From Pseudobdellovibrionaceae bacterium (GTDB taxonomy: Bacteria; Bdellovibrionota; Bdellovibrionia; Bdellovibrionales; Bdellovibrionaceae): a stretch of DNA of 64,000 nucleotides. Location of the stretch: contig JBDHWW010000008.1 in the NCBI GenBank assembly GCA_039810425.1, positions 21,323 through 85,322 of the forward strand. The letters are read 5' to 3'. The position numbers and the translations under genes were made by a program. Of the stretch, positions 14,507-26,326 are shown in pieces (position 1 is the first letter of the stretch; every line of letters starts with the position of its first letter). The notes under the pieces are model-generated. The model was not told the DNA's origin. It did no database searches and worked only from the letters and a program-made list of their open reading frames with translations.

Positions 14507-15880
14507 TTAACCTTTTGCCCCCTGAGCCATCGCCTGGACAGAGCCCATTTGCTGGTTCAGCTGAGACATTTTTGATTCTAAATCAGAAAATTTCCTTCTG
14601 AGACTTTCTTCCTTTTGCACCAACTGGCGTTCTTTGTTGTCGATGCGTTTGTTGATCTGATCAATCTTGTCTTGCATCCCTTTTTTCCGATTCCCGATAG
14701 GACCAAATTGTGAATTCACCATGTTGTTCACGGCATTCTTTACATTGACCACGAATCCAGTTTTAAAACCGTCTCCACGGAAGAACTCGGCAACGCCTTG
14801 GGGGTTTGATTGCAGAACCTTATTGAACTTATCCTGTTTGAAATCCAAGGTGCCATTACGGTTAAACTCGATGCCCAGTTCGTTAATGAGCTTGATCGGA
14901 CTTTCATTTGTAAACATCGGATTCATGATAACGCTACGGAGAGAGCTCTCTACCGTGCGTAACAGACCGTCGCCGCCGAGCGGGCCCATGGTCGGCGTCT
15001 TACTGCCATTTTGAGCTGTGAGCTTGTGTTGCTGCTGAATAAAGCCAAGAACAGAATTATAGGCGTCAACGAAGCTCTTGATCTTGCCGCTAATGACTTC
15101 GTAGTTTTCTTTGACATTGATACGAACCTGCTTGCCCGGCGCCGCCTGTTTCAAGTCCAGAGTCACACCCGGGAAAAGATCGGCCACTTTATTCTCAGGC
15201 AATTCAATTTCAAAGCCATCGACTTTGATTTTCGCATTTTTTGCCGGGCGAGATTCATCGAAGTACATGTCCTGATCCCCGTCGAGCATATAGATCTTCG
15301 GGAACGCGATTTGTTTATCACTCCCCGTCGCCAAACCCGCAACAAGCAGGCGATAGGGATTTTCAGGGTCTTTACGGTCTTCAATGACCGAAGCGCGCAA
15401 GCCAGCATTCGCTGCATTGATTTGATCGGCAACACCCGTGAGGGTTGAGTTTTCACCGTTGATATAAACTTCTTTGGTGCCGTCGGGAGTTTCGAATTTG
15501 ATATAGCCGACACCCATCTGAGCTTTGTCTTTATCAGGAAATCCGTTGGAAATCGCCGAAGGCTTTTCTGCCAGTTGCAGGACTTCCAAACTGTAATCGC
15601 CTGGAACCGCGAAGTTTGGATCCAAAGATCCGTCAGCGATATTTGGATCTCCGCTCGTAAGTTTTTTGTCAGAGAAACCTTTGGTGTTCGTCAACTCACC
15701 GAGGTTTTTAACGATGTCGTTCACTTTGGACTCGAGGTCGGTGACGAGTTTTAACTTGTCCTCGTTTTTGGCTTTCTGTGACTCCATGTTCTTCACGGGA
15801 ATACGCTCAGCGTCCATCAACTGATCGACGATATTCGGCGGTAATCCTGAGGCCATTCCGGAGATACGAATGCCAGCCAC
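14507..15880 (-). CDS. fliD: Flagellar filament cap protein
   Basis: 'SGMASGL...IVDQLMDAER.P', C-terminal 'LRRKFSDLESKMSQLNQQ'; GTG start; upstream of fliS. Confidence 0.93.
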   Translation of the reverse strand: MAGIRISGMASGLPPNIVDQLMDAERIPVKNMESQKAKNEDKLKLVTDLESKVNDIVKNLGELTNTKGFSDKKLTSGDPNIADGSLDPNFAVPGDYSLEVLQLAEKPSAISNGFPDKDKAQMGVGYIKFETPDGTKEVYINGENSTLTGVADQINAANAGLRASVIEDRKDPENPYRLLVAGLATGSDKQIAFPKIYMLDGDQDMYFDESRPAKNAKIKVDGFEIELPENKVADLFPGVTLDLKQAAPGKQVRINVKENYEVISGKIKSFVDAYNSVLGFIQQQHKLTAQNGSKTPTMGPLGGDGLLRTVESSLRSVIMNPMFTNESPIKLINELGIEFNRNGTLDFKQDKFNKVLQSNPQGVAEFFRGDGFKTGFVVNVKNAVNNMVNSQFGPIGNRKKGMQDKIDQINKRIDNKERQLVQKEESLRRKFSDLESKMSQLNQQMGSVQAMAQGAKG

Positions 15881-15948: not shown

Positions 15949-16135
15949 AAGTTCATTCTCGCAGAATATTTGTAAAACCGTGAGTCAATCAAATGACCTG
16001 GACAAAGCTCGAAAACCGCTTAAAACAGTTATTTTGAGAGGGAATTTTGACACTGGACAGGACCATGGTAAGGGGGCGTGTTGAGTCCATGCTCCATCAA
16101 CGCCCCCGCAAACTGCGATATCAACTAATCTGCTA

Positions 16136-17089
16136 TTAGATTTTCGCCAACAGTGCTTGCAGCAAAACGGAAATCAACTGTTGCTCTGTCGAGTTAAGTC
16201 CCAACTTACTTAAATTAGCGGACTGCCCGGCAATCACACTTGAAAGCAACTGATTGAGATTCAAGCCCATTGATGAATTAGAACTCAGAAATTGAGACAA
16301 GCCCGACTGGGATCCGGCGGTCAAAGAGTTAATAAGCATTTGTGTGACGCTGCTGCTGTTGGAAAAACCAGAAAGCCCCTGAATGGACCCCGCACCGATC
16401 TTATTTAAAATATCGGATAAAACGCCGGAGCCAATATTGGCAATATTGAGATTGCCGATTCCCAGAACCGCACCCGAAGAAAGGCTTTGCAGTAAAGCCG
16501 AAAGATTTGTCGCCGGAAGGCCGGATGCTCCAAGAGATGAAACCAAGGAACTCATTAGAGTGCTCGACACTGACGACAGACTTCCATTGCTGACTCCTGC
16601 CGCTGAAAGATTCTGGAAAAGTGTCGTTGAGATGTTTTGAATGAGACCACTCGATAGGCCGCCACCGGAAGAAAGCAGCGATGTCTCAATAGCCGACGTT
16701 CCAAGTCCGGAAACAAGCGTCGCGATCTGCGGGCCGCTCAGGCCAGGAACGGTGGCACCGATATTCTGACTCATCCCCTGAATGATAATTGGAATTAAGG
16801 CGTTAACATCGGTACTTGAACTGAGGCCTTTGGCGTTGATGGCAACGGCGCCAGAGTTTAAAAGCGTAAGAAGTTGCGACTCGGATAATAAAGACTTTTG
16901 ACGAAGGCTCGTACCGAAGGTTTGCAATACTTTATTTGACGGAGCGGTATTTTCAGCTGCCGTCGGAGGAACCGCTGCGCTATTATTGACGGGAGCAGAT
17001 TCCGCAGAGACGGGCGCATTAAATTTTCCGCCACAAGCTGATAACATGGAAACTGCAGTGATACTTAAAAGCGCGTAACGTGATTTCAT
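16136..17089 (-). CDS. Ser/Gly/Leu-rich low-charge lipoprotein, unknown function
   Basis: Lipobox MLSAC; SD AAGGAG upstream; hairpin at about 16072-16108 downstream. Confidence 0.7.
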   Translation of the reverse strand: MKSRYALLSITAVSMLSACGGKFNAPVSAESAPVNNSAAVPPTAAENTAPSNKVLQTFGTSLRQKSLLSESQLLTLLNSGAVAINAKGLSSSTDVNALIPIIIQGMSQNIGATVPGLSGPQIATLVSGLGTSAIETSLLSSGGGLSSGLIQNISTTLFQNLSAAGVSNGSLSSVSSTLMSSLVSSLGASGLPATNLSALLQSLSSGAVLGIGNLNIANIGSGVLSDILNKIGAGSIQGLSGFSNSSSVTQMLINSLTAGSQSGLSQFLSSNSSMGLNLNQLLSSVIAGQSANLSKLGLNSTEQQLISVLLQALLAKI

Positions 17090-17324
17090 AGAGGACTCTC
17101 CTTGATATATAAAGGTTAGCTCTCTCTTGTTAGAATGAAAATACTCAGGTAAAAATAAATTTAAATTGTCAAAAATAGCTCCAGATTTTAAAAAAAATTT
17201 GAATAGAACTTCTACGTTTCCAACCTTCCTTTTTTGAAGTGTCTGGTTTGTTTTCGCTATTTAAAAGGTTCATTTAAGAGTGTGGAACCGATCGTCCCTA
17301 CGTGAGACCCGGTGGCAAAGCTAT

Positions 17325-17705
17325 TTAAGCGGACTTCTTAAGGAGTTGGCCTTTTGCGCCTGGCTCATTGCCGGCGGGAAGAGTCCATAAATCAAGTTCA
17401 GGAATACGACGGATCACTGTGCCGTTTGTATCTTTGATGAGAACAAACTTTTTATTTTCGATAAGAAACAGTTCTACTAACCAACCGTGCTCTTTGATGG
17501 CTGAAAAATTTCGGAGTTGTTCGAGGGCTTTTTGGATTTGTTCATCGGTCATCGGCTCACGATGTTGCTGATTACCGGCGCCCGCCTGCTGTCCATTGGC
17601 ATCGCGGTCCGCTGCCGAATCGGATTTAATCGCTCTCTCGGTTTTCGAGGCGCCCCGAATCGGATTCGTTGGTAGCATGTTTCCTAATAGGCCTTTGATA
17701 TTCAT
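17325..17705 (-). CDS. flaG: FlaG-like flagellar protein
   Basis: C-terminal 'VLIKDTNGTVIRRIP' FlaG-type motif; lies between a flagellin and fliD. Confidence 0.55.
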   Translation of the reverse strand: MNIKGLLGNMLPTNPIRGASKTERAIKSDSAADRDANGQQAGAGNQQHREPMTDEQIQKALEQLRNFSAIKEHGWLVELFLIENKKFVLIKDTNGTVIRRIPELDLWTLPAGNEPGAKGQLLKKSA

Positions 17706-17713
17706 CAACCTAC

Positions 17714-17740
17714 TTATCGGCTTTGACCCGAGATTGATTA
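17714..17740 (-). promoter_or_regulatory. Sigma28 promoter (flaG-like gene)
   Basis: TAATCAAT-N11-GCCGATAA (perfect -10). Confidence 0.75.
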
Positions 17741-17871
17741 AATTTCGAGCATAAATCCGGACCTAAGTACCCAGGAGAGCCTAGACGACTCCCCTGGTAG
17801 GTTGGTACTAGGAGGACAATGGAGAACATCCTCCCAGAACTTTTTAAATCTTTTTAAAATTCTTTTAAATA

Positions 17872-18705
17872 TTAACCCAAGAGTTTCAAAGCAAGCTGCG
17901 GTGTCGAGTTAGCTTGACCAAGAACACTTGTATTCGCGTTCAAGAGAATCGTATTTCTAGTCATCTCTGAAGTTGCTGCCGCTACATCTGTGTCACGGAT
18001 ACGAGAGTTTGCTGCCGAGATATTTTCGTACATGACACCCAAGTTGTCAGAAGTGGATTGCAAACGATTTTGGATCGCACCTAGACTTGCGCGGTAGCCA
18101 TTCACTTTGAATTGTGCATCATCCAGTTTTGAAAGAGCGGACTGCGCACCTTCTTTGGAAGTGAAATCGAGGCCTTCTACGCCCAACTCATCAATTGTCG
18201 CGTTGGTCATCGCAGAATCATACGTGATACGATCTTCTGATTCATTATTGTTGATACCGACTTGGAAATCGAATGCGTTGCCAGAACCATTCAGAAGCTG
18301 TGTATTTCCGAAACGAGTTGTTTGAGAGATTCGTTGCATTTCCGCTTTAAGTTGTTGCACCTCTTTGTCAGTGAAACCGCGTTCACGGTCACCTACGGTG
18401 TCGGAAGCGGCCTGGATGCCCAACTCACGAATACGAGTCAAAATGTTGCTCACTTCGTTCAACCCGCCTTCTGCAGTTTGCACCATAGAGATACCATCGT
18501 TAGCATTACGTTGAGCCTGAACCATACTACGGCCTTGAGATTTTAAATTTTCACTGATTGCCAAGCCTGCAGCGTCGTCTGCTGACTTAGTGATACGAGA
18601 ACCTGAAGCCAATTGAGCCATGCTCTTTTGGATTTCGCGCTGGCCATTAGCCATTGTTCGCTGCGCGTTAATTGCTGCTACGTTCGTCGAAATTCTGATT
18701 CCCAT
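17872..18705 (-). CDS. fliC: Flagellin (here fla-A)
   Basis: 'RISTNVAA', 'LASGSRI..SADDAAGLAISE', 'RIRDTD.A....EMTR..IL'; 277 aa with a minimal variable domain. Confidence 0.97.
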   Translation of the reverse strand: MGIRISTNVAAINAQRTMANGQREIQKSMAQLASGSRITKSADDAAGLAISENLKSQGRSMVQAQRNANDGISMVQTAEGGLNEVSNILTRIRELGIQAASDTVGDRERGFTDKEVQQLKAEMQRISQTTRFGNTQLLNGSGNAFDFQVGINNNESEDRITYDSAMTNATIDELGVEGLDFTSKEGAQSALSKLDDAQFKVNGYRASLGAIQNRLQSTSDNLGVMYENISAANSRIRDTDVAAATSEMTRNTILLNANTSVLGQANSTPQLALKLLG

Positions 18706-18876
18706 GTGGGACCTCCATTTTTTTGGCGGTCTTATACCTACTTAGACCGCCTGTTTGTACACGTTGGTGACTTCACTTCTTCCTCTAGAGCCTGCTAGCG
18801 ATGAACTCTCGGCAGTCACTCCTTAAGTCCCTCTCAGCCCGTCCAGGTCGAGGTGTCGTCGTTGCTGTTGACATAC

Positions 18877-18903
18877 CTTTCGGCGAGGTCGTGGAAGTCT
18901 TTA
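18877..18903 (-). promoter_or_regulatory. Sigma28 promoter (fla-A)
   Basis: TAAAGACT-N11-GCCGAAAG; implies a leader of about 165 nt. Confidence 0.8.
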
Positions 18904-19117
18904 GTCGCGTCCGGCAGAACTGGACCATCGTCGCGCGCGAACTAGACTAAGGTTTTGCTTTTCTGGACTTTTTGCGCGGATTTCCCGGCTCTAGGTCGTG
19001 GAAATTTCCACGCCCGACCACAGTCTCGTCGGGCCGGTGCTGGACTATATACTAAGAGATCTTAGTCTTGGCTGATGAAAGGCTTGGTCTGGCCTGGAAG
19101 AAGCTGGTAAAACTCTA

Positions 19118-19573
19118 ATGGTGAAAACAAAAACAGCTGTCCTTATACTTACACTGATCATCACCGCATGCGCCTCTTCAGAAAGTGCGCAGAACGATCC
19201 TACGACAGGTGAAACAATGGCAAAGCTAAAATCCCGCCCGTTGGGCGTGTCCGTGATTGAGTTGCCTAACACCAATGCTATTTCCATTAAATTGAAATTT
19301 GACTGTCAGGATGAAAATTACAAAATCCGTATGCTTAAGTACAAGATCCGCGCGACTGAGAATGACAAAGAGATCCAGACCGATGGCCTGCAAAAAAGCT
19401 GGCTCGATAAAAACATAACCATCGTGAATCTCAAGTACCCTAAAACCCGCCATATCAAGTTTAAGAGCATTGAGATCTCGGCCCACTCTTGGGTGCGCTC
19501 ATTCCCCGATTCGCAGCTTAGCAGCCCCATTGGCCTGACTCTGCAGCAATGCAAGGACTTAGCGCCGTATTAG
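19118..19573 (+). CDS. Hypothetical lipoprotein
   Basis: Signal peptide with lipobox ITAC. Confidence 0.55.
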   Translation: MVKTKTAVLILTLIITACASSESAQNDPTTGETMAKLKSRPLGVSVIELPNTNAISIKLKFDCQDENYKIRMLKYKIRATENDKEIQTDGLQKSWLDKNITIVNLKYPKTRHIKFKSIEISAHSWVRSFPDSQLSSPIGLTLQQCKDLAPY

Positions 19574-19673
19574 TTGTCCTCTCAAAGGTCGCAAGAACCT
19601 TTTTTGCGTTTACTCGATCGTAGCTGCCGCGGCCATGGGCAGCAACTACCACTCACCGTATATTGTGTTTGCT

Positions 19674-20177
19674 CTAGCTATTTTCAGATTTCTCGCGGCG
19701 ATCGCTTCGGGCTCTATAGAAAGCTTTGGTTGCAACGTAAATATTCTTGTCTATGGTTGAGACGATAGCACCCGACTCATCAAACCAACTGACGGATTTT
19801 GCAAACTCATACTTGCCTTCAGAAGCAGTCACGCGTTTGATTTGCTCGACCTCGTCTTCGGTATAGATAAATTCAGCTTTGAGCTTTCCTTTGCCGGGCT
19901 TTTTAAACTGAATCGATGCCGACTTATCCCAAACGACGTAGCCATCGCCAAGAATATTAATCAGCATCACCATGTACATTGGATCCGTGGCAGAAAATTG
20001 GCTGCCACCGAAAATCGTGCCAACATAATTGCGCGTCCAAATATTCAGTGACAAGCGCACAACTACCCTCATCCAATCACCCGCGATAAACAGCACCTTA
20101 CCACCGGTTCCGAAGAACATTGGATATAGATTAATACCATATCTGAAAAATCGCGTTTTTAAAGATTCAGGAGTCAT
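19674..20177 (-). CDS. Hotdog-fold/PaaI-like protein (DUF4442-like)
   Basis: 'NLYP..GTGG', 'TRNYVGTIFGGS', 'YVVWDKSASIQFKKPG'; start taken at ATG 20177. Confidence 0.8.
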   Translation of the reverse strand: MTPESLKTRFFRYGINLYPMFFGTGGKVLFIAGDWMRVVVRLSLNIWTRNYVGTIFGGSQFSATDPMYMVMLINILGDGYVVWDKSASIQFKKPGKGKLKAEFIYTEDEVEQIKRVTASEGKYEFAKSVSWFDESGAIVSTIDKNIYVATKAFYRARSDRREKSENS

Positions 20178-20187
20178 GCTTTTCCTT

Positions 20188-21201
20188 CTAATGCCAAACC
20201 AAAGGATCAGACCAAAGCGCATCAACGAGACTCACTTCCGCCGGCTGGTAGGATCTCATGCCCAATGCTTTCATAAAGCCGAACACCAACGCAAGGTTTG
20301 TCACCTCGGTCGCCGCATAGGGGTCATTAATCTGAACATCCGTCATATTCGCACGAATCTCGAGAGCCGCCTGAATCGTTTCTTGTGTCATCGCACTGGC
20401 GGCAATAATTTGCCGAGGAAGCGACTTTGCCAAAACACCGCCGATACCAACAACCACTGTTTCGGGATTTGCGAATTTTCTTTTGATGTTAGCCGGCACG
20501 GTTGCTGTTGCTTCTACTTCCGCAAGAGCTACTGAAGGCTTCACGTTTTTTTTCTTTAATGGGTTGGGAGAAGTGACTTTGTCCGGATTCATTTTCTGAA
20601 CTTTAGCAATGACCTGATTTTTAAAACTCACCGACGCGAGATTGCCGTAATATACCGTCGGCTTGAGTGCTTCATCCACGCTTGTCATTTGCATGCTGCC
20701 GCCGCCGATATCCCAAACCACCAGATCCCCAATAGGGACTTTGACTTTTTCGCGAGCCACTTGAAAGCCTAAGAAGGCCTCTTCGCTTTGCGAGATCACC
20801 TTTAAGGGAATGGACAGTTTTTCACGAATCACTTTTACGAAGCTGTCGGCATTTTTAGCCTGACGAAAAGCCGCCGTCGCGATGCCTGTGAACCTCTTCG
20901 TCCCTTTGGCCTGAGCTTCACTCTTTAATTTTTCGAGCGCGACTAGCCCCTCGGTTTGAACAGACTCTGAAAACTCCCCAGCCTCGTTCTTTTCAAGCGC
21001 GTCTCGGTAATCGACCTTCACTTGATCCTCGAGCACCGTTTGAGTCACATCCTGTGTGCAAGTATTAAACTCAACGACCTTCATTTTAGTGGCACCGGAT
21101 CCCACATCAAAGGCCGCGCGGATCTCGGGTCCACACTTCGGCGTCGTCTGGCAAGAAACCAAAGAAAGCGATATAAGAAGAAGAAATAAAACATGGTACA
21201 T
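20188..21201 (-). CDS. Ppx/GppA-family phosphatase with lipoprotein signal
   Basis: 'AAFDVGSG', 'ATAAFRQAKN', 'VISQSEEA', 'WDIGGGSMQ'; N-terminal lipobox LVSC. Confidence 0.8.
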   Translation of the reverse strand: MYHVLFLLLISLSLVSCQTTPKCGPEIRAAFDVGSGATKMKVVEFNTCTQDVTQTVLEDQVKVDYRDALEKNEAGEFSESVQTEGLVALEKLKSEAQAKGTKRFTGIATAAFRQAKNADSFVKVIREKLSIPLKVISQSEEAFLGFQVAREKVKVPIGDLVVWDIGGGSMQMTSVDEALKPTVYYGNLASVSFKNQVIAKVQKMNPDKVTSPNPLKKKNVKPSVALAEVEATATVPANIKRKFANPETVVVGIGGVLAKSLPRQIIAASAMTQETIQAALEIRANMTDVQINDPYAATEVTNLALVFGFMKALGMRSYQPAEVSLVDALWSDPLVWH

Positions 21202-21298
21202 AGATCGTCCTTGAAAGATTTCCTCCTATTACAAGCCGTATAGAACGAAACTTCAAGAAACCATCGCGCTGCATCCGAAAAAGGTACGGCGTACCCTC

Positions 21299-21334
21299 AA
21301 AAAAAAAACCCCGAAAGGCTTGCGCCTCCCGGGG
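21299..21334 (-). terminator. Rho-independent terminator downstream of fla-B
   Basis: Minus strand CCCCGGGAGG-cgcaag-CCTTTCGGGG followed by T10. Confidence 0.8.
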
Positions 21335-21566
21335 TGGGCTTAAGAGTAGTTTTTGTGGGCGACTACTCGTAATTATTTGAAACTCCGTTCCCGCTGGAGT
21401 TCCTTTAAAATTTATCTCAAGAGTTCGCGCAATCAATTAGGATTACACCAACTCCTCAAATATTGTCCGCAATGACAAAGCAGTTTTGGAAGGCTCGGCA
21501 GATCTGTGAGCACTCACTCTCACAGATCCACCATTTTGTATCACTGAAGCTTTCAGTGAAATTTTA

Positions 21567-22391
21567 TTATAAGAGCTTCAATGCGACCGCTGGTGTTTGG
21601 TTGGCTTGAGCCAAAACCCCTACCGCCGCTTGTTGCAAGATATTGGCAGACGTCATCTCAGAAGTTTCTTTCGCGACGTCTGTGTCACGGATACGAGAGT
21701 TCGCAGCCGTCAAGTTTTCGTACTGGATGTCCAAGTTGCTTACCGTGGAATCCAAGCGACTTTGTACCGCACCGAAGTTCGCTCTCAGTGAGCTGACCTT
21801 CACGAGGGCATCATCGACGGTTTTCAAAGCAGCGCGCGCATCGGATTTCGTACCTACCTCAAGACCGTCGATACCAAGCTCTGAGCCTGTAGCATCGGCG
21901 CCAAGGTCGTACTTAATAATATTCTCATCACCGGCGAAGGCACCCACTTGGAACTCCATCTTACCGCCAGAGCCATCCAAGAGCCGTTTATCACCAAACA
22001 CCGTAGTTTTCGCGATACGGTCCGCCTCTTGAGTCAGTTGGGTTGCTTCAAGATTCAAGAATCCGCGTTCGCGCTCACCGATATGGTCAGAAGCCGCTTG
22101 GACTCCCAACTCACGCAAACGGATTAAAATATTACTGATCTCATTCAATCCCCCCTCAGACACTTGAATTGCTGAAGTCGCATTGAACGCATTGTTTCTG
22201 GCCTGAGCAATACCGCGCACCTGGCCGCGGATATTTTCAGAGATCGCGAGGCCGGCCGCATCATCAGATGCATGCACGATACGCGAACCAGAAGCTAAGG
22301 CCGCCGTCGCATGTTCCGCACGTTTCTGCTGAACCGACAACACCCTTTGTGCCGATATAGACGCCATGTTGGTCTGAATTCTTAAGCCCAT
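21567..22391 (-). CDS. fliC: Flagellin (here fla-B)
   Basis: 'MGLRIQTN', 'LASGSRI..ASDDAAGLAISE', 'NSRIRDTDVA'; SD TAAGGAGG. Confidence 0.97.
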   Translation of the reverse strand: MGLRIQTNMASISAQRVLSVQQKRAEHATAALASGSRIVHASDDAAGLAISENIRGQVRGIAQARNNAFNATSAIQVSEGGLNEISNILIRLRELGVQAASDHIGERERGFLNLEATQLTQEADRIAKTTVFGDKRLLDGSGGKMEFQVGAFAGDENIIKYDLGADATGSELGIDGLEVGTKSDARAALKTVDDALVKVSSLRANFGAVQSRLDSTVSNLDIQYENLTAANSRIRDTDVAKETSEMTSANILQQAAVGVLAQANQTPAVALKLL

Positions 22392-22612
22392 TGTATCCTC
22401 CTTAGGATGAAGCCAACGCGGTTCCGACCCACCGAAGCTCGCGCTGGAGTTCTAAAAAACTAACTACGTTAAAATGTTTTTTTAGATTGGAGCGGGCCCG
22501 CACTCTCTGACGGGGCGACTGTCCCTTCAGAGAGGCGAGCTATCCGCCTAAGGAGGATTCTGTCGAGTGACTGCTAGACAAAGGTCCCGAGGTTTTAGCT
22601 CCAACGTGTACG
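22392..22612 (-). promoter_or_regulatory. Structured leader of fla-B, about 220 nt (candidate RNA switch)
   Basis: 12-nt anti-SD at 22547-22558 complementary to the SD region 22395-22406; competing helix 22593-22606 with 22442-22457; internal hairpin 22503-22534. Confidence 0.6.
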
Positions 22613-22618
22613 CAATAC

Positions 22619-22645
22619 TTCTCGGCCTTGGTCCAGGAAACTTAA
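22619..22645 (-). promoter_or_regulatory. Sigma28 promoter (fla-B)
   Basis: TTAAGTTT-N11-GCCGAGAA. Confidence 0.8.
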
Positions 22646-22782
22646 GGCCCTTGGTCTAGCTTTTCTTTGGATGCGACGCGTCTTGTATGTGAAAATATTG
22701 AGAATGTGGATTAAAAAAATATTTTAAAAACACCTACTTAGGTCTAGGTCGAACTAGACCTTGCAGCAATTATGTTACGGAG

Positions 22783-22822
22783 TTTGGGCGGCGAAGAACG
22801 CCATTAGCGTCTTCGCCGCAAA
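22783..22822 (-). terminator. Hairpin downstream of fla-C (probable terminator)
   Basis: GCGGCGAAGA (22788-22797) / TCTTCGCCGC (22810-22819) stem; weak U-tract. Confidence 0.5.
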
Positions 22823-22851
22823 TTCAGTCGCCCCCAAATATATTCATAAAT

Positions 22852-23676
22852 CTAAGCGATTAATCGCAGCAGAACTTCATTCGACATATTGGACTGGGCC
22901 AATACCGATGCCTGATATTGCTGCAAGATCTGACCACGGCGAACCTCGCTCACCGCTTGCGCGACATCAGTGTCGGCCATTCTCGAGTGCGCGGCTTCGA
23001 TGTTCTCGATGCCCACCGCGAGATTGTTGGCGGCGCTGTCCATACGTGATTGGACGGCTCCGTATTTGGCGCGTGCCTCGGCCACCTTCATCATCGCTTC
23101 ATCGATGTCCTTCAGGTTACTGCGGGCATCGCTCTTGGATTCGATATCGCCGCCAGCCACGCCCAGTGAAGAGCCCGTGGTGTCGGTGTCCGAAGTGTAC
23201 TTAATGATGCTGTCGCTGCCACCCGAAGTTCCGACTTGGAATTCGTAGTCTTTCGATCTTCCATTCAGCAATGAGGTGGAACCATAAGTGGTCGTCTTTG
23301 CAATACGATCCAACTCTTGCGACAGTTGAGTGTATTCAAAGTTAAGGTATTCGCGCTCTTTATCAGAGTACGTATCACTCGCTGCCTGAACCGCTAGCTC
23401 GCGCATACGGATCAGAATATTATTCTGCTCGTTGAGAGCCCCCTCAGCGACTTGAATAAAACTCGTGGCATTGTCGGCATTGTTCAATGCCGCCCTTTGG
23501 CCTCGCATTTGACCTTTGAGTTGCTCTGCGATTGCAGCGCCAGCGGCGTCGGAGCCGGGCGTATTGAAGCGGGTTCCGGAAGCCAAATCCTTCATAGCCT
23601 TTTCAGTAGACCGTTGGGTCGAGCCCAGGTATCTCTGCGCCATGAGAGATGCCGAAACAGGAGAAATACGTAACAT
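22852..23676 (-). CDS. fliC: Divergent flagellin (here fla-C)
   Basis: 'LASGTRF....DAAGAAIAE', 'RMRELAVQAASDT', 'SRMADTDVA'; start taken at ATG 23676 after GGGAGG. Confidence 0.93.
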   Translation of the reverse strand: MLRISPVSASLMAQRYLGSTQRSTEKAMKDLASGTRFNTPGSDAAGAAIAEQLKGQMRGQRAALNNADNATSFIQVAEGALNEQNNILIRMRELAVQAASDTYSDKEREYLNFEYTQLSQELDRIAKTTTYGSTSLLNGRSKDYEFQVGTSGGSDSIIKYTSDTDTTGSSLGVAGGDIESKSDARSNLKDIDEAMMKVAEARAKYGAVQSRMDSAANNLAVGIENIEAAHSRMADTDVAQAVSEVRRGQILQQYQASVLAQSNMSNEVLLRLIA

Positions 23677-23780
23677 TGAAGCCACCTCCCCTTCCCCGAG
23701 TGCCTCGCCCCGAGACATTATGGAAGGAAAAAAGCGCCCACATTTAAACTCTTAAGACCTTTGTCTAGCAGTCACAATTC

Positions 23781-23807
23781 TTTTCGGCGCATTGCGTTAA
23801 AACTTTA
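23781..23807 (-). promoter_or_regulatory. Sigma28 promoter (fla-C)
   Basis: TAAAGTTT-N11-GCCGAAAA, near consensus. Confidence 0.85.
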
Positions 23808-23842
23808 GGATCATTGCGAATTATTAGACCTTACGACTCATT

Positions 23843-25096
23843 TTAAGGCATCGGAATCGGACTCATCAGATCTTCTGAAGAAACACTGGATGAACTATCG
23901 AACGGCAAGAAGCTTTGCGCTGTATAGGCGAAGGGGTGCCGGCCGCCATACTGCTGGATTATATCCATTACTTTGTTTCGAATCTGGTCACGAGCGTTGC
24001 TCCAATCTGCCGGGCTCTCGGTGTTCATGAAAATGCCGAAATAGACATCGCCCTGAGTTGTGGAAAGGACCCCCGTTAACGTGACGGCAGGGTCCACTGT
24101 GCCCGTCTTCGCCACCATACTGTTCGGGATAGGATCAAATCGCGGACTCAGAGTTCCACCATCCGCGCCAGAGACTGCCATCACATCCTTTAAGCTCATT
24201 CTGTATTTCGTCTGAAGCTCAGATTGCATTTGGTACTGAACACGAAGAATTGCTTCACAAGTGGCTCGGTTGTATGTTTTGGTGCCACCGTCTACGCCAG
24301 AAATAGAGTTCCCTGAGCCATTCACAAAGACGAGATCAAGATCGTTCAGATTTAAACTACTTTGTATAAAGCTGCGGAAATGAGGTGTCCCGCCGAGGAT
24401 TTCAAAAAGTTTGTCGGCAACGTGATTGTTAGAAACCGTGTTCATTTCTTTGAGGTAGCGGAAAAGCGGCGCTGACTTCACGACAAAGGACTTTGTGGCA
24501 GATGAGGGTTGGAATGCCGCTGCCGGGACCAGCTCCACGGTTTGAGCGGTCAAACTGAGTGTCTTGGGCAGTGTCATACCGAGATTCGCAGCCTCTTGGC
24601 GTGTTCGAGGGTATTCGGTCGCTAATGCCCTGATATGCCGAGCAATTGAGCCCGCAATTTCTTGGGGGGTTGGCTCCTCCGGCTCCACGCTGTCTGTAAC
24701 AACAAACCAGCGGAAACCGAGATTCTCGTCAAAACTTAATTTCCGGATTTGACGAACTCCATTTCGATTCAACTCCGAAAATAAAAAATGGGTGAGCTGG
24801 CGACCCCAGAACGGATCTCGTGCTCCTTGAATGTGCACGTCGAAAACGTCGTGGCCCAAAGGCGTTATGAAAATACGAGTACTAAAACGAAATTGAGGGC
24901 CTAATTGGTAAAGTGCCCAATAGGAAGTAACAACTTTGGAAACTGAGGCGATCTCAAAAAGTTCGTTGCTGTGCACGCCTTGAATTCTTGAGTGGCCGCC
25001 TTCATCGAGCATATAGCAAACGGAGTTGAGACTCGTTTTCGCCTCTCCCAGGACTGTGAGGCTCAATAGAATGCTGAAAAGAACTATTCCCTTCAC
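23843..25096 (-). CDS. Secreted D-Ala-D-Ala carboxy/endopeptidase (PBP4/DacB, peptidase S13)
   Basis: Signal peptide; SxxK 'ASVSK', SxN 'SNN', 'NGSG', 'AKTGT'. Confidence 0.85.
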   Translation of the reverse strand: MKGIVLFSILLSLTVLGEAKTSLNSVCYMLDEGGHSRIQGVHSNELFEIASVSKVVTSYWALYQLGPQFRFSTRIFITPLGHDVFDVHIQGARDPFWGRQLTHFLFSELNRNGVRQIRKLSFDENLGFRWFVVTDSVEPEEPTPQEIAGSIARHIRALATEYPRTRQEAANLGMTLPKTLSLTAQTVELVPAAAFQPSSATKSFVVKSAPLFRYLKEMNTVSNNHVADKLFEILGGTPHFRSFIQSSLNLNDLDLVFVNGSGNSISGVDGGTKTYNRATCEAILRVQYQMQSELQTKYRMSLKDVMAVSGADGGTLSPRFDPIPNSMVAKTGTVDPAVTLTGVLSTTQGDVYFGIFMNTESPADWSNARDQIRNKVMDIIQQYGGRHPFAYTAQSFLPFDSSSSVSSEDLMSPIPMP

Positions 25097-25355
25097 AGGA
25101 TCTCCTTTCCAAAGTCATCTATATGCATGTTAGCGCCCTCGGCAATATATAAAAGTTATAAATTCTTCTTCGATAATCATGTTCAGAGTCCTTCTAGAAT
25201 TTTCCTAAAGGGTTAGAAAAATTGCCTTTAAATGTTTTTTTTCTGGTTTGGCGGCCCCTTATCATTTACAACATAAGGGTATTTTTACTTTCAGTTAGAT
25301 TAGTCATACTCAGATAAAACACCATTGATGTAACAACTCGAAGCACAGGATTAAT

Positions 25356-25637
25356 ATGAAAGAGAATAAACTTCTGGCCGATTTCCTGAGAGATAAACGG
25401 ATCGAATCCGGACACTCTCAAATGGATGTCGCCAAAAAGCTGGGCTACACCTCAGCTCAATTCGTTTCCAACTGGGAGCGAGGCCTCTCTAGCCCTCCGA
25501 TTCACACTCTAAGAAATCTCAGCGAGCTGTATCAAATTCCTCCTGATGTGCTTTTCGATATCACTCTTAAGACGATGATCAATCAAGTGACCATGGACTT
25601 GCGTAAAAAATTTTACGGCAAAAGAGGCAAAGGCTAA
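25356..25637 (+). CDS. XRE-family HTH regulator
   Basis: 'SQMDVAKKLGYTSAQFVSNWERG'. Confidence 0.9.
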   Translation: MKENKLLADFLRDKRIESGHSQMDVAKKLGYTSAQFVSNWERGLSSPPIHTLRNLSELYQIPPDVLFDITLKTMINQVTMDLRKKFYGKRGKG

Positions 25638-25645
25638 TTTAGCAG

Positions 25646-26326
25646 TTAGGGGATATTGGGGTATGCCCGGTATTCCCTAACTATCTTAGCGATGTCCTCG
25701 CTCACTTTTTGATAGCCGAATCGATGTTTCTTGTCTCCTAATCCTATTTCCGCAAAGACATTGCCTTTGTCGAAGGGACCAAAGAAACCGGTGAAAAAAT
25801 CGAATCGTCCTTCACCGAGAATTGCGCCGCCTTGATCGCGCACCACCAAGTAACCATTGTGAGCCTTTCCGTCAGGCAGCCGCACACCCACAAGCCTCGG
25901 TACGAAAATCACGTCACCTACTTTATGAATACTCAGATCCGCCGCCACTGAATAGAAGGGATCCAAGCACAAGGCTTGAACGCCGTAGCCATAGGGGCAA
26001 CGGGCTTCTTTCTTCTCGGCAAAGCGGCTAATGCCGTCTTTCTTCCTGGTGAAGTTGAAGTTGCGTGTGCGCTGCCCTTCAACCACATAGCAAGAACCTT
26101 GCAGCAAACAGTTGTCGTAATTTTTTTTGCAAAGTGAGATCAAAATTTTATCATTCTCATCAATGAGATCTTTAAGGTCGTTACCCGCGCAGACATCTTT
26201 TTCCTTATAGATCACCGGTTTGTAGTAAATCGTCGGCGTTATCATTGGCAAATTGTCACCCACGCTGCGGGCACAAGCCGTCGTGAGCAGAGAAAGAATG
26301 AAAAGAATTAGAAGCTGTCTTACCAT
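25646..26326 (-). CDS. 3D-domain (MltA C-terminal-like) lipoprotein
   Basis: Lipobox TTAC; 'SVAAD...GD', 'VRDQGGAI.G..RFDFF' three-Asp pattern. Confidence 0.7.
   Translation of the reverse strand: MVRQLLILFILSLLTTACARSVGDNLPMITPTIYYKPVIYKEKDVCAGNDLKDLIDENDKILISLCKKNYDNCLLQGSCYVVEGQRTRNFNFTRKKDGISRFAEKKEARCPYGYGVQALCLDPFYSVAADLSIHKVGDVIFVPRLVGVRLPDGKAHNGYLVVRDQGGAILGEGRFDFFTGFFGPFDKGNVFAEIGLGDKKHRFGYQKVSEDIAKIVREYRAYPNIP

Follow-up and report, generated by a model that had tools for sequence, protein, structure and literature searches.

Complementary flagellin mRNA leaders in the Bdellovibrionaceae and a candidate pairing hub homologous to APsRNA3

Three flagellin genes, here named flaC, flaB and flaA, lie on the minus strand of a 64,000-nucleotide stretch of DNA (the window, whose numbering is used for all coordinates) from a Pseudobdellovibrionaceae bacterium (GenBank GCA_039810425.1, contig JBDHWW010000008.1), and the leaders of their mRNAs are complementary to each other. 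The centre of this complementarity, which we call the hub, is a structured RNA of about 125 nucleotides (nt) with which the flaB leader begins. It has separate contact sites for the flaC and flaA leaders, and is homologous to an RNA, APsRNA3, already detected in Bdellovibrio bacteriovorus. The order flaC-flaB-flaA, the sigma28 promoters and all three pairings persist across the Bdellovibrionaceae with many compensatory changes. We consider it likely that RNA-RNA pairing in trans tunes the expression of these flagellin paralogues, and does so without Hfq or ProQ.

The complementary blocks and the RNA that carries them

The gene flaC (22852..23676, like the others and their leaders on the minus strand) encodes a divergent flagellin of 274 amino acids, flaB (21567..22391) one of 274 and flaA (17872..18705) one of 277, and all three products have Flagellin_N and Flagellin_C domains (Pfam). 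As protein length, which for flaB equals that of FliC1, and position relative to the fliC2-like gene agree, flaB and flaA are taken as the counterparts of fliC1 (Bd0604) and fliC2 (Bd0606), respectively. A regular-expression scan places a sigma28-type promoter, TAAA-N15-GCCGAxAx, upstream of each gene: at 23781..23808 for flaC, at 22619..22645 for flaB, where it reads TTAAG-N14-GCCGAGAA, and at 18877..18904 for flaA. It is recognised in 40 of 51 flaC upstream regions of the family, 60 of 65 for flaB and all 43 of the flaA genes. The flaA start is set at 18869 by the measured transcription start site (TSS) of Bd0606, listed in the published attack-phase table (Karunker et al. 2013, PMC3627812), the string GCCGAAAGGTATGTCA being identical in both, and this gives a 5′ untranslated region (UTR) of 164 nt that contains both of the flaA sites considered below.

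An earlier note, made from the letters of the window alone, had pointed to exact complements among these leaders, and each is found where it was said to be. The 20 nucleotides GTGACTGCTAGACAAAGGTC at the flaC 5′ end (23775-23756) have their exact reverse complement at 22586-22567 in the flaB leader, with complementarity that extends to 31 nt at 84%; GTACACGTTGG at 22611-22601 in flaB is complementary over 11 nt to CCAACGTGTAC at 18767-18757 in flaA, and GCAGTCACTC at 22574-22565 over 10 nt to GAGTGACTGC at 18821-18812. Could the longest of these be a dispersed repeat? With up to three mismatches allowed the 20-mer is matched twice in the window, where 100 shuffles gave no match, and twice in the entire genome of 3,541,767 bases; with two copies only, it is not a dispersed repeat, and the generic genome-wide motif that the note had itself held up as the danger is not what this pairing, unique in the genome, turned out to be. 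A hairpin common to all paralogues, from which complementarity would follow trivially, was also considered and set aside: no second copy of the 20-mer, in either sense, turns up in flaC or in flaB when as many as three mismatches are tolerated. The shorter matches are another matter. Counting both strands of the genome, the 11-mer is found 4 times where a naive expectation is 1.7, and is weak by itself but backed by covariation; the 10-mer, with 11 genome-wide occurrences against 6.8 expected, is within chance when taken alone, and its core covaries with the hub loops in relatives. A third, imperfect block that the note had placed in register between the other two (flaA GCUAGCAGGCUCUAGAGG) finds no support, as among six flaA leaders of the genus it varies freely while flaB does not change to match, and the cofold leaves it unpaired. 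In local RNAduplex tests against dinucleotide shuffles, none of 300 shuffles was as good as hub nucleotides 21-60 with the first 45 nt of flaC, and 1 of 300 was as good as the first 20 nt of the hub with the flaA leader.

What is the RNA that carries these blocks? The first ~129 nt of the flaB transcript fold far better than shuffled sequence (z = -3.9 for the window, -4.5 and -4.6 for two further genera), and the plan common to the three is of six free 5′ bases, a closing helix and two open-looped hairpins, a hairpin 1 and a long hairpin 2. The hub in the window has predicted limits of 22484..22611 and after its two hairpins finishes with CUCCAAU and an A/U-rich tail. Its seed 1, GUACACGUUGG (22601..22611), of which the 5′ six bases are single-stranded, is the complement of flaA 18767-18757, and it runs into the closing helix, in which GUUGGAGC (22605-22598) pairs with GCUCCAAU (22493-22486). 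Hairpin 1 with its 5′ flank (22559..22597; stem UUUGUC/GACAGA, loop UAGCAGUCACUC) comes next, and from 22597 to 22567 it is antisense to the flaC mRNA 5′ element at 23745..23775, the start of which is predicted. Hairpin 2 (22497..22539) has the apical loop ACAGUCGC, which in most relatives is CAGUCACC. On the flaA side there are two sites, S1 (CCAACGUGUAC, 18757..18767), complementary to seed 1, and S2 (GAGUGACUGC, 18812..18821), complementary to the hub loops. In a consensus fold of 30 family hub sequences the closing helix is kept, and 10 of 15 pairs, mostly in hairpin 2, are changed on both sides. Rfam cmscan over 16000-26000, at E up to 1, matched no family there, the single weak hit being to NsiR1 at the flaB terminator (23.9 bits against a gathering score of 39). 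The idea of a hub with distinct contacts for flaA and flaC thus stands as the earlier note had it; its extent does not, for what had been seen as the first ~47 nt is a discrete structured RNA of ~125 nt.

Between the two hairpins lies a sequence of a different kind, an anti-Shine-Dalgarno element AUCCUCCUUAGG (anti-SD; 22547..22558), which is the exact 12-nt complement of the flaB Shine-Dalgarno (SD) region at 22406-22395. All seven genomes of the genus have such a match of 10-12 nt; only 20 of 59 family leaders have one of at least 7 nt, and an anti-SD as a family-wide hub feature was rejected since outside this genus the match is no better than in shuffles.

In B. bacteriovorus, APsRNA3 was reported at 561,854-561,981 on the plus strand, 128 nt long with a FliA promoter and at 14,726 reads per kilobase per million mapped reads (RPKM) in attack phase; it is directly upstream of Bd0604 (562,130-562,954; 11,984 RPKM), for which the published attack-phase table gives no TSS of its own, and just downstream of that gene is APsRNA4 (562,984-563,081), while Bd0606 stands at 1,932 RPKM (PMC3627812). 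There APsRNA3 was presented only as an attack-phase transcript, for which neither homologues nor targets were reported, and our literature search found it mentioned in that original paper only. The published positions can be transferred to a genome of the B. bacteriovorus-type genus, because in it the Bd0606 promoter string stands at its printed coordinates. In position, promoter, size and structure alike the hub is the homologue of APsRNA3: the two share a place directly upstream of the fliC1 counterpart and co-directional with it, a FliA/sigma28 promoter, a length of ~128 nt and a 5′ block with the conserved ...ACGUUGG, and they have in common the closing helix, the long hairpin with a CA(G/A)UCACC loop and the 3′ CUCCAAC. 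As reported, the APsRNA3 3′ end falls just past hairpin 2, CUCCAACC and the A/U-rich run, which is the hub boundary arrived at from conservation. They differ in that the B. bacteriovorus-type version is without hairpin 1, which is absent from the hub sequences of that genus, where no flaC was seen adjoining fliC1, and in that APsRNA3 is reported to begin 4 nt into the block complementary to the fliC2 leader.

Covariation of the pairings across the family

The window is assigned to the Bdellovibrionaceae/Pseudobdellovibrionaceae, and among its same-genus relatives is an isolate whose genome is complete. Searching with the flaB leader gave matches to the flaB promoter and first transcribed bases in 69 of 121 family genomes, in 34 of 41 genera; about 11 kb was fetched around 60 matches, and flagellin genes and promoters were annotated in 67 genomes, including the window and six genus relatives. 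In all six same-genus genomes flaC is followed by flaB, and flaA comes next in all five whose stretch extends that far. Across the family the distance from flaB to flaA varies from ~1.2 kb to ~7 kb and other genes intervene, which favours action in trans. In one same-genus genome an insert of ~1.7 kb separates flaC from flaB, with both complementary blocks unchanged. The earlier note had rightly held that matches antisense to one another go beyond what simple duplication provides and had suggested that covariation be looked for; conservation with compensatory changes was indeed found across the family for flaC/flaB, for hub/S1 and for the flaA motif with the hub loops.

For flaC, the predicted transcript opens in nearly all genomes with a GACUGC-type core a few bases past the -10 box, the pairing in relatives starting 1-9 nt past it, and the flaB leader holds the complement of the core, with flanking sequence that differs genus by genus. 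Sequence has changed with complementarity kept in CUAGACAAAGG/CCUUUGUCUAG, UGUUGAUGAGUUCC/GGAACUCAUCAACA, UAUUGGCGAG/CUCGCCAAUA and GCUAGUCAGUCCAAG/CUUGGACUGACUAGC, and in one genus the core itself has been replaced, UGCUAGUCAGUCCAAGG pairing with CUUGGACUGACUAGCA. When duplex energies are compared, as ranks only, the cognate flaC/flaB duplex is better than that with every flaB leader from other genera in 22 of 37 genomes. Does hairpin 1 go with flaC? Hairpin 1 and an adjacent flaC are both present in 42 genomes, flaC only in 2, hairpin 1 only in 6 and neither in 5, with 5 unjudged. A strict tie was considered and dropped, as one genus keeps hairpin 1 with no adjacent flaC, and it is an association only.

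For the hub 5′ end and S1, an exact complement of at least 9 nt is present in the cognate flaA leader of 31 of 39 genomes, or 33 once two mis-set promoters are corrected, with S1 usually ~110 nt from the flaA -10 box. The seed and its partner occur as GUACACGUUGG/CCAACGUGUAC, AUACACGUUGG/CCAACGUGUAU, UGUAACGUGUUGG/CCAACACGUUACA, UACUUGUUGG/CCAACAAGUA and GUACAUGUUGGAG/CUCCAACAUGUAC, and the helix has at least two types of Watson-Crick pair in four columns (26 distinct pairs). The second flaA contact involves the motif GAGUGACUGCC, whose family-wide complement is the hairpin-2 loop CAGUCACC, the hairpin-1 loop (10 nt) being the best partner in this genus. What the earlier note made of the 10-nt match is therefore in part upheld, since the flaA GUGACUG does covary with the hub, and in part amended, the hairpin-1 match being genus-specific and the partner elsewhere in the family being the hairpin-2 loop. 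The joint changes are of four kinds, GUGAUUG/CAAUCAC, GUGAUGA/UCAUCAC, GUGACAG/CUGUCAC and UUGACGG/CCGUCAA. Of 40 genomes, 30 have an exact complement of at least 7 nt between the flaA motif and a hub loop; in four the motif is missing and in two the search pattern chose the wrong site. S2 may also pair locally, with AAGUCACC at 18773-18766; that flaA fold is not significant.

Probable pairing in trans and its alternatives

From these features we infer pairing in trans, together with its sign and its consequence. The flaB sigma28 promoter would yield the structured ~125-nt RNA as the 5′ part of the flaB leader and, to judge by APsRNA3, the hub is probably also a stable short RNA in its own right. 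Its single-stranded 5′ end and the 5′ strand of the closing helix would pair with S1 of flaA, the loops of its hairpins (CAGUCAC) with GUGACUG in the flaA 5′ UTR, and hairpin 1, by its loop and 5′ arm, with the 20-30 nt at the start of the flaC mRNA. Seed 1 could serve as a toehold, with six free bases engaged at once and further bases then drawn out of the closing helix, the flaA S1 sequence (CUCCAACGUGU...) mimicking the hub's own 3′ strand. S2 may be held by the AGUCACC directly 5′ of S1, in which case hub binding at both sites would remodel the flaA leader. The flaC 5′ terminus would become double-stranded, and this could alter 5′-end-dependent decay or create an RNase III site. Such duplexes would couple flaA and flaC flagellin output to the amount of flaB transcript. 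Separate from these contacts, the cofold offers the hub 5′ block (22598-22611) a pairing with the flaC start-codon region (23665-23684, GCUUCAAUGUUAC), of 13 base pairs with one bulge and two G·U pairs.

In what direction would expression be tuned? In the Bdellovibrio filament the flagellins stand in the fixed order FliC3, 5, 1, 2, 6 and in unequal amounts, FliC1 being abundant and FliC2 scarce. By analogy with FlaX and flaB in Vibrio cholerae (see below) repression or delay is favoured, and most likely the minor paralogues would have their translation or stability lowered or delayed; the abundance of FliC1 over FliC2 and an RPKM for Bd0604 about six times that of Bd0606 are consistent with this. 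The genome is 99.88% complete, and neither an Hfq nor a ProQ domain turned up in it; long duplexes and loop contacts that do without a chaperone fit with that.

Several points weigh against this reading, and they are of different kinds. To begin with anatomy, S1 is 52 nt and S2 ~107 nt upstream of the flaA AUG and the flaC site is at the 5′ end, ~70 nt upstream of the SD; as no pairing site covers an SD sequence, no mechanism follows from the anatomy, and in the cofold with either partner the flaB anti-SD:SD helix is unchanged. The starts of the flaC and flaB transcripts in the source genome are promoter-based predictions, and the public RNA runs with similar sequence cover only small shares of the window; four of them yielded short metagenome contigs of related organisms, which give neither ends nor strand. 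The earlier note had two of the matches beginning at the predicted +1, and the published data cut both ways on this. The Bd0606 TSS maps 1 nt from the flaA start then proposed; the reported APsRNA3 5′ end, the A in UAC|ACGUUGG, corresponds to window 22607, 4 nt inside seed 1, and it is 13 nt past the -10 box against 8 nt for Bd0606. Taken at face value it would leave that strain 6 of its 12 paired bases. Full-length RNAduplex scores are no better than those of shuffles, with z = +0.4 for the hub and the flaC leader, 18 of 300 shuffles as good for the hub and the flaA leader and 77 of 300 for flaC with flaA, in a setting where long inputs sum many loose pairs and the local tests alone are informative; the absolute energies behind the cognate rankings are inflated on that account.

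The comparative data have their own weak places. The cognate flaB/flaA pair comes first in the ranking for 4 of 39 genomes only, or for 1 of 20 if each genus is represented once, in a test that is weak because the block is nearly invariant; in three genomes of one genus the flaC/hub match is weakened. When G·U and A·C pairs are given equal scores, 8 G·U stand against 5 A·C in the flaC/hub helices, and because of this unbiased count wobble tolerance is no proof of selection at the RNA rather than the DNA level; a previous count of 36 to 4 had come from a scoring scheme that favoured G·U and was replaced. The motif definitions, for the flaA motif and hub loops and for hairpin 1 and flaC, were set after the sequences had been viewed. 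Lastly, the covariation counts ignore kinship, so that related genomes, which are not independent, overstate the number of evolutionary events.

Might the roles be reversed, with the flaA and flaC leaders regulating and flaB their target? Their binding would then open the closing helix or alter hairpin 1, and so change early termination or processing, or flaB translation. Seed 1 does overlap the closing helix, and in this genus the 10-12-nt anti-SD sits 8 nt past hairpin 1; yet the cofold retains the anti-SD:SD helix with either partner, and the extended anti-SD is confined to one genus. The hub ends as a hairpin, CUCCAAC and an A/U-rich run, which is U-rich in the B. bacteriovorus-type genome just where the reported 128-nt RNA ends, an ending there like that of an attenuator, and as the published table lists no separate TSS for Bd0604 the flaB mRNA may read through the hub. 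However, a pattern scan gave no canonical terminator in the window hub, and flaB, by the RPKM published for the relative far the more abundant transcript, fits a regulator better than it does a target. We think such a reversal unlikely. A protein could be at the heart of the matter instead. CsrA binds flagellin leaders in Bacillus subtilis and Campylobacter jejuni, and under a FliW-CsrA checkpoint the leaders would mainly be targets and the blocks protein-binding elements, their mutual complementarity being secondary. The fliW and csrA genes adjoin on another contig of the source genome (C10:3126-3953), and there are GGA-containing motifs in seed 1 (UUGGAGC) and at the SD sequences, but the covarying positions are outside the GGA cores, and from a shared protein one would expect two distant sites to stay the same, not to change together. 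As the explanation of the blocks this is quite improbable; CsrA-FliW control probably coexists with RNA pairing without replacing it.

Pairing could also occur in cis, within long transcripts that read from flaC through flaB or from flaB through flaA. The three genes are co-directional and in many genomes adjacent, and a metatranscriptome contig covers 22521-22694, across the flaB promoter, though it may be DNA or come from another organism. Each gene has, however, its own conserved sigma28 promoter that places the block at or near a 5′ end; strong hairpins follow flaC and a canonical terminator follows flaB; up to ~7 kb with unrelated genes can separate flaB from flaA; the 1.7-kb insertion between flaC and flaB in one genus relative left the match intact; and the published measurements have the Bd0606 TSS and the short APsRNA3 as distinct transcripts. 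The chance that pairing in cis is the explanation is accordingly very small. Smaller again is the chance of a role at the DNA level, either as inverted repeats for a Hin-like inversion or as coevolving sites of a DNA-binding protein, kept alike by recombination. Inverted repeats do flank flaC and the flaB promoter, concerted evolution of recombining repeats would mimic covariation, and the unbiased count of G·U and A·C pairs is compatible with it. None of 10 open reading frames scanned around the locus has a recombinase domain, however, and in 44 genomes scored with a co-directional flaC upstream of flaB there is a single orientation and no inverted form. The repeats, of 7-31 bp, are free to vary between genera outside a short core and tolerate bulges, unlike recombinase core sites. 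The partner pairs are three and all different, and every one of them sits at the 5′ end of a transcript or in a hairpin loop of a structured, abundantly expressed RNA.

The wider locus, precedents and what the pairing may mean

The trans pairing that we favour starts from the flaB 5′ UTR, and the other end of that mRNA has a conserved element as well. At 21308..21368 a 3′-UTR hairpin is followed by an intrinsic terminator: GAGUAG-UCGCCCACAAAAA-CUACUC, then UUAAGCCC and the canonical terminator, which is the flaB 3′ end. The segment matches the APsRNA4 region of B. bacteriovorus, and in the B. bacteriovorus-type genus the GCCCAC hairpin lies within APsRNA4 as published. Of 65 family genomes, 46 have GCCCAC no more than 420 nt past flaB, for the most part within this hairpin. 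The loop is complementary to UGUGGGCG (23742-23735), a motif conserved in flaC leaders; because the hairpin is also present where no flaC was seen, it must have further targets. It is a tentative thought, and one we hold with some doubt, that in Bdellovibrio-like predators flaB mRNA organises the whole flagellin set post-transcriptionally, the 5′-UTR hub seeds and the 3′-UTR loop (CGCCCACA/UGUGGGCG) regulating the paralogues without Hfq or ProQ, so that order and ratio along the tapered filament would reside in RNA contacts.

The genome has seven flagellin genes in all. The four outside the window (contigs C2, C4 and C27) have no strict sigma28 promoter match in the preceding 400 nt, and both the hub blocks and the target blocks are absent from them; they may be under different control. 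Between flaB and flaA are two unrelated genes, one of the Ppx/GppA family and one with DUF4442, and downstream of flaC there are strong hairpins, with a palindromic AGGTCTAG...CCTAGACCT hairpin 3′ of that gene. Words of the CTAGACCAAGG / CTGGACCAAGG type are repeated upstream of and within the flaB promoter spacer (22617-22659 and 22740-22775), and TAGACC-like words recur 5′ of flaB in many relatives; these words and the palindrome near the flaB promoter could be an operator or a terminator. Directly 5′ of the flaA SD is another hairpin, GGCGGUC ... GACCGCC (18725-18751), whose loop contains AAGUAGGUA, and the word AGUAGGU recurs in flaA-type leaders of other genera. Inspection of the sequence gave no sigma28 promoter on the plus strand that would drive antisense transcription out of the flaB leader.

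How new is any of this? The earlier note knew of no described example of a circuit from leader to leader, though a close precedent does exist. The concept is already known, with FlaX as the closest precedent; what is new is the RNA, its targets, the layout of one hub with two targets and the depth of covariation, and our literature searches on Bdellovibrio flagellin UTRs and on flagellin mRNA-mRNA interaction found no description of this leader pairing. In V. cholerae FlaX, cut from the flaA 3′ UTR, sets filament composition by pairing with the mRNA of the paralogue flaB at three places in its 5′ UTR, and the authors of that work propose a general concept for bacteria with multiple flagellins (PMC11879080). 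Like FlaX, the hub derives from a flagellin UTR and has, in silico, complementarity at multiple sites to paralogue 5′ UTRs (two in flaA and one in flaC). Unlike the hub, which is a 5′ UTR under sigma28 control in a genome where no ProQ or Hfq gene was found, FlaX as described is a 3′ UTR cut by RNase E, dependent on ProQ and of the RpoN class; and whereas FlaX covers the flaB ribosome-binding site, the hub sites cover no SD and are in two different paralogues.

In Escherichia coli UhpU, MotR, FliX and FlgO are sigma28-controlled small RNAs derived from UTRs that by base pairing modulate flagellin level and flagella number; they differ from the hub in being Hfq-associated, and MotR and FliX pair within ribosomal-protein coding sequences, not with paralogous flagellin leaders (Melamed et al. 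2023, PMC10578931). A Hin-type switch has inverted repeats in common with this locus, but none of the 10 neighbouring open reading frames has a recombinase domain, and in the genomes that have both genes a single orientation was seen. With Campylobacter jejuni flaA and Bacillus subtilis hag, a flagellin 5′ UTR is both a cis target and a trans regulator in the CsrA-FliW system, and this works by protein titration, not by RNA-RNA duplexes, the CsrA and FliW genes being present here too. In mRNA-mRNA pairings such as hly-prsA2 of Listeria, the untranslated region of one mRNA pairs with another mRNA and alters its fate; such pairs, in contrast to the present case, are non-paralogous, have no multi-seed hub and are not flagellar.

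Most Bdellovibrio flagellin genes share one sigma factor, and pairing of this sort would bear on how the order and ratio of their products are set. Two attack-phase RNAs that have been orphans since 2013, APsRNA3 and possibly APsRNA4, gain concrete and testable targets. The intermolecular helices come with an unusually rich natural covariation data set, and the control of paralogous flagellins by flagellin UTRs, as described in Vibrio, would reach an unrelated phylum, where the RNA is another one, comes from a 5′ UTR and has no known chaperone.

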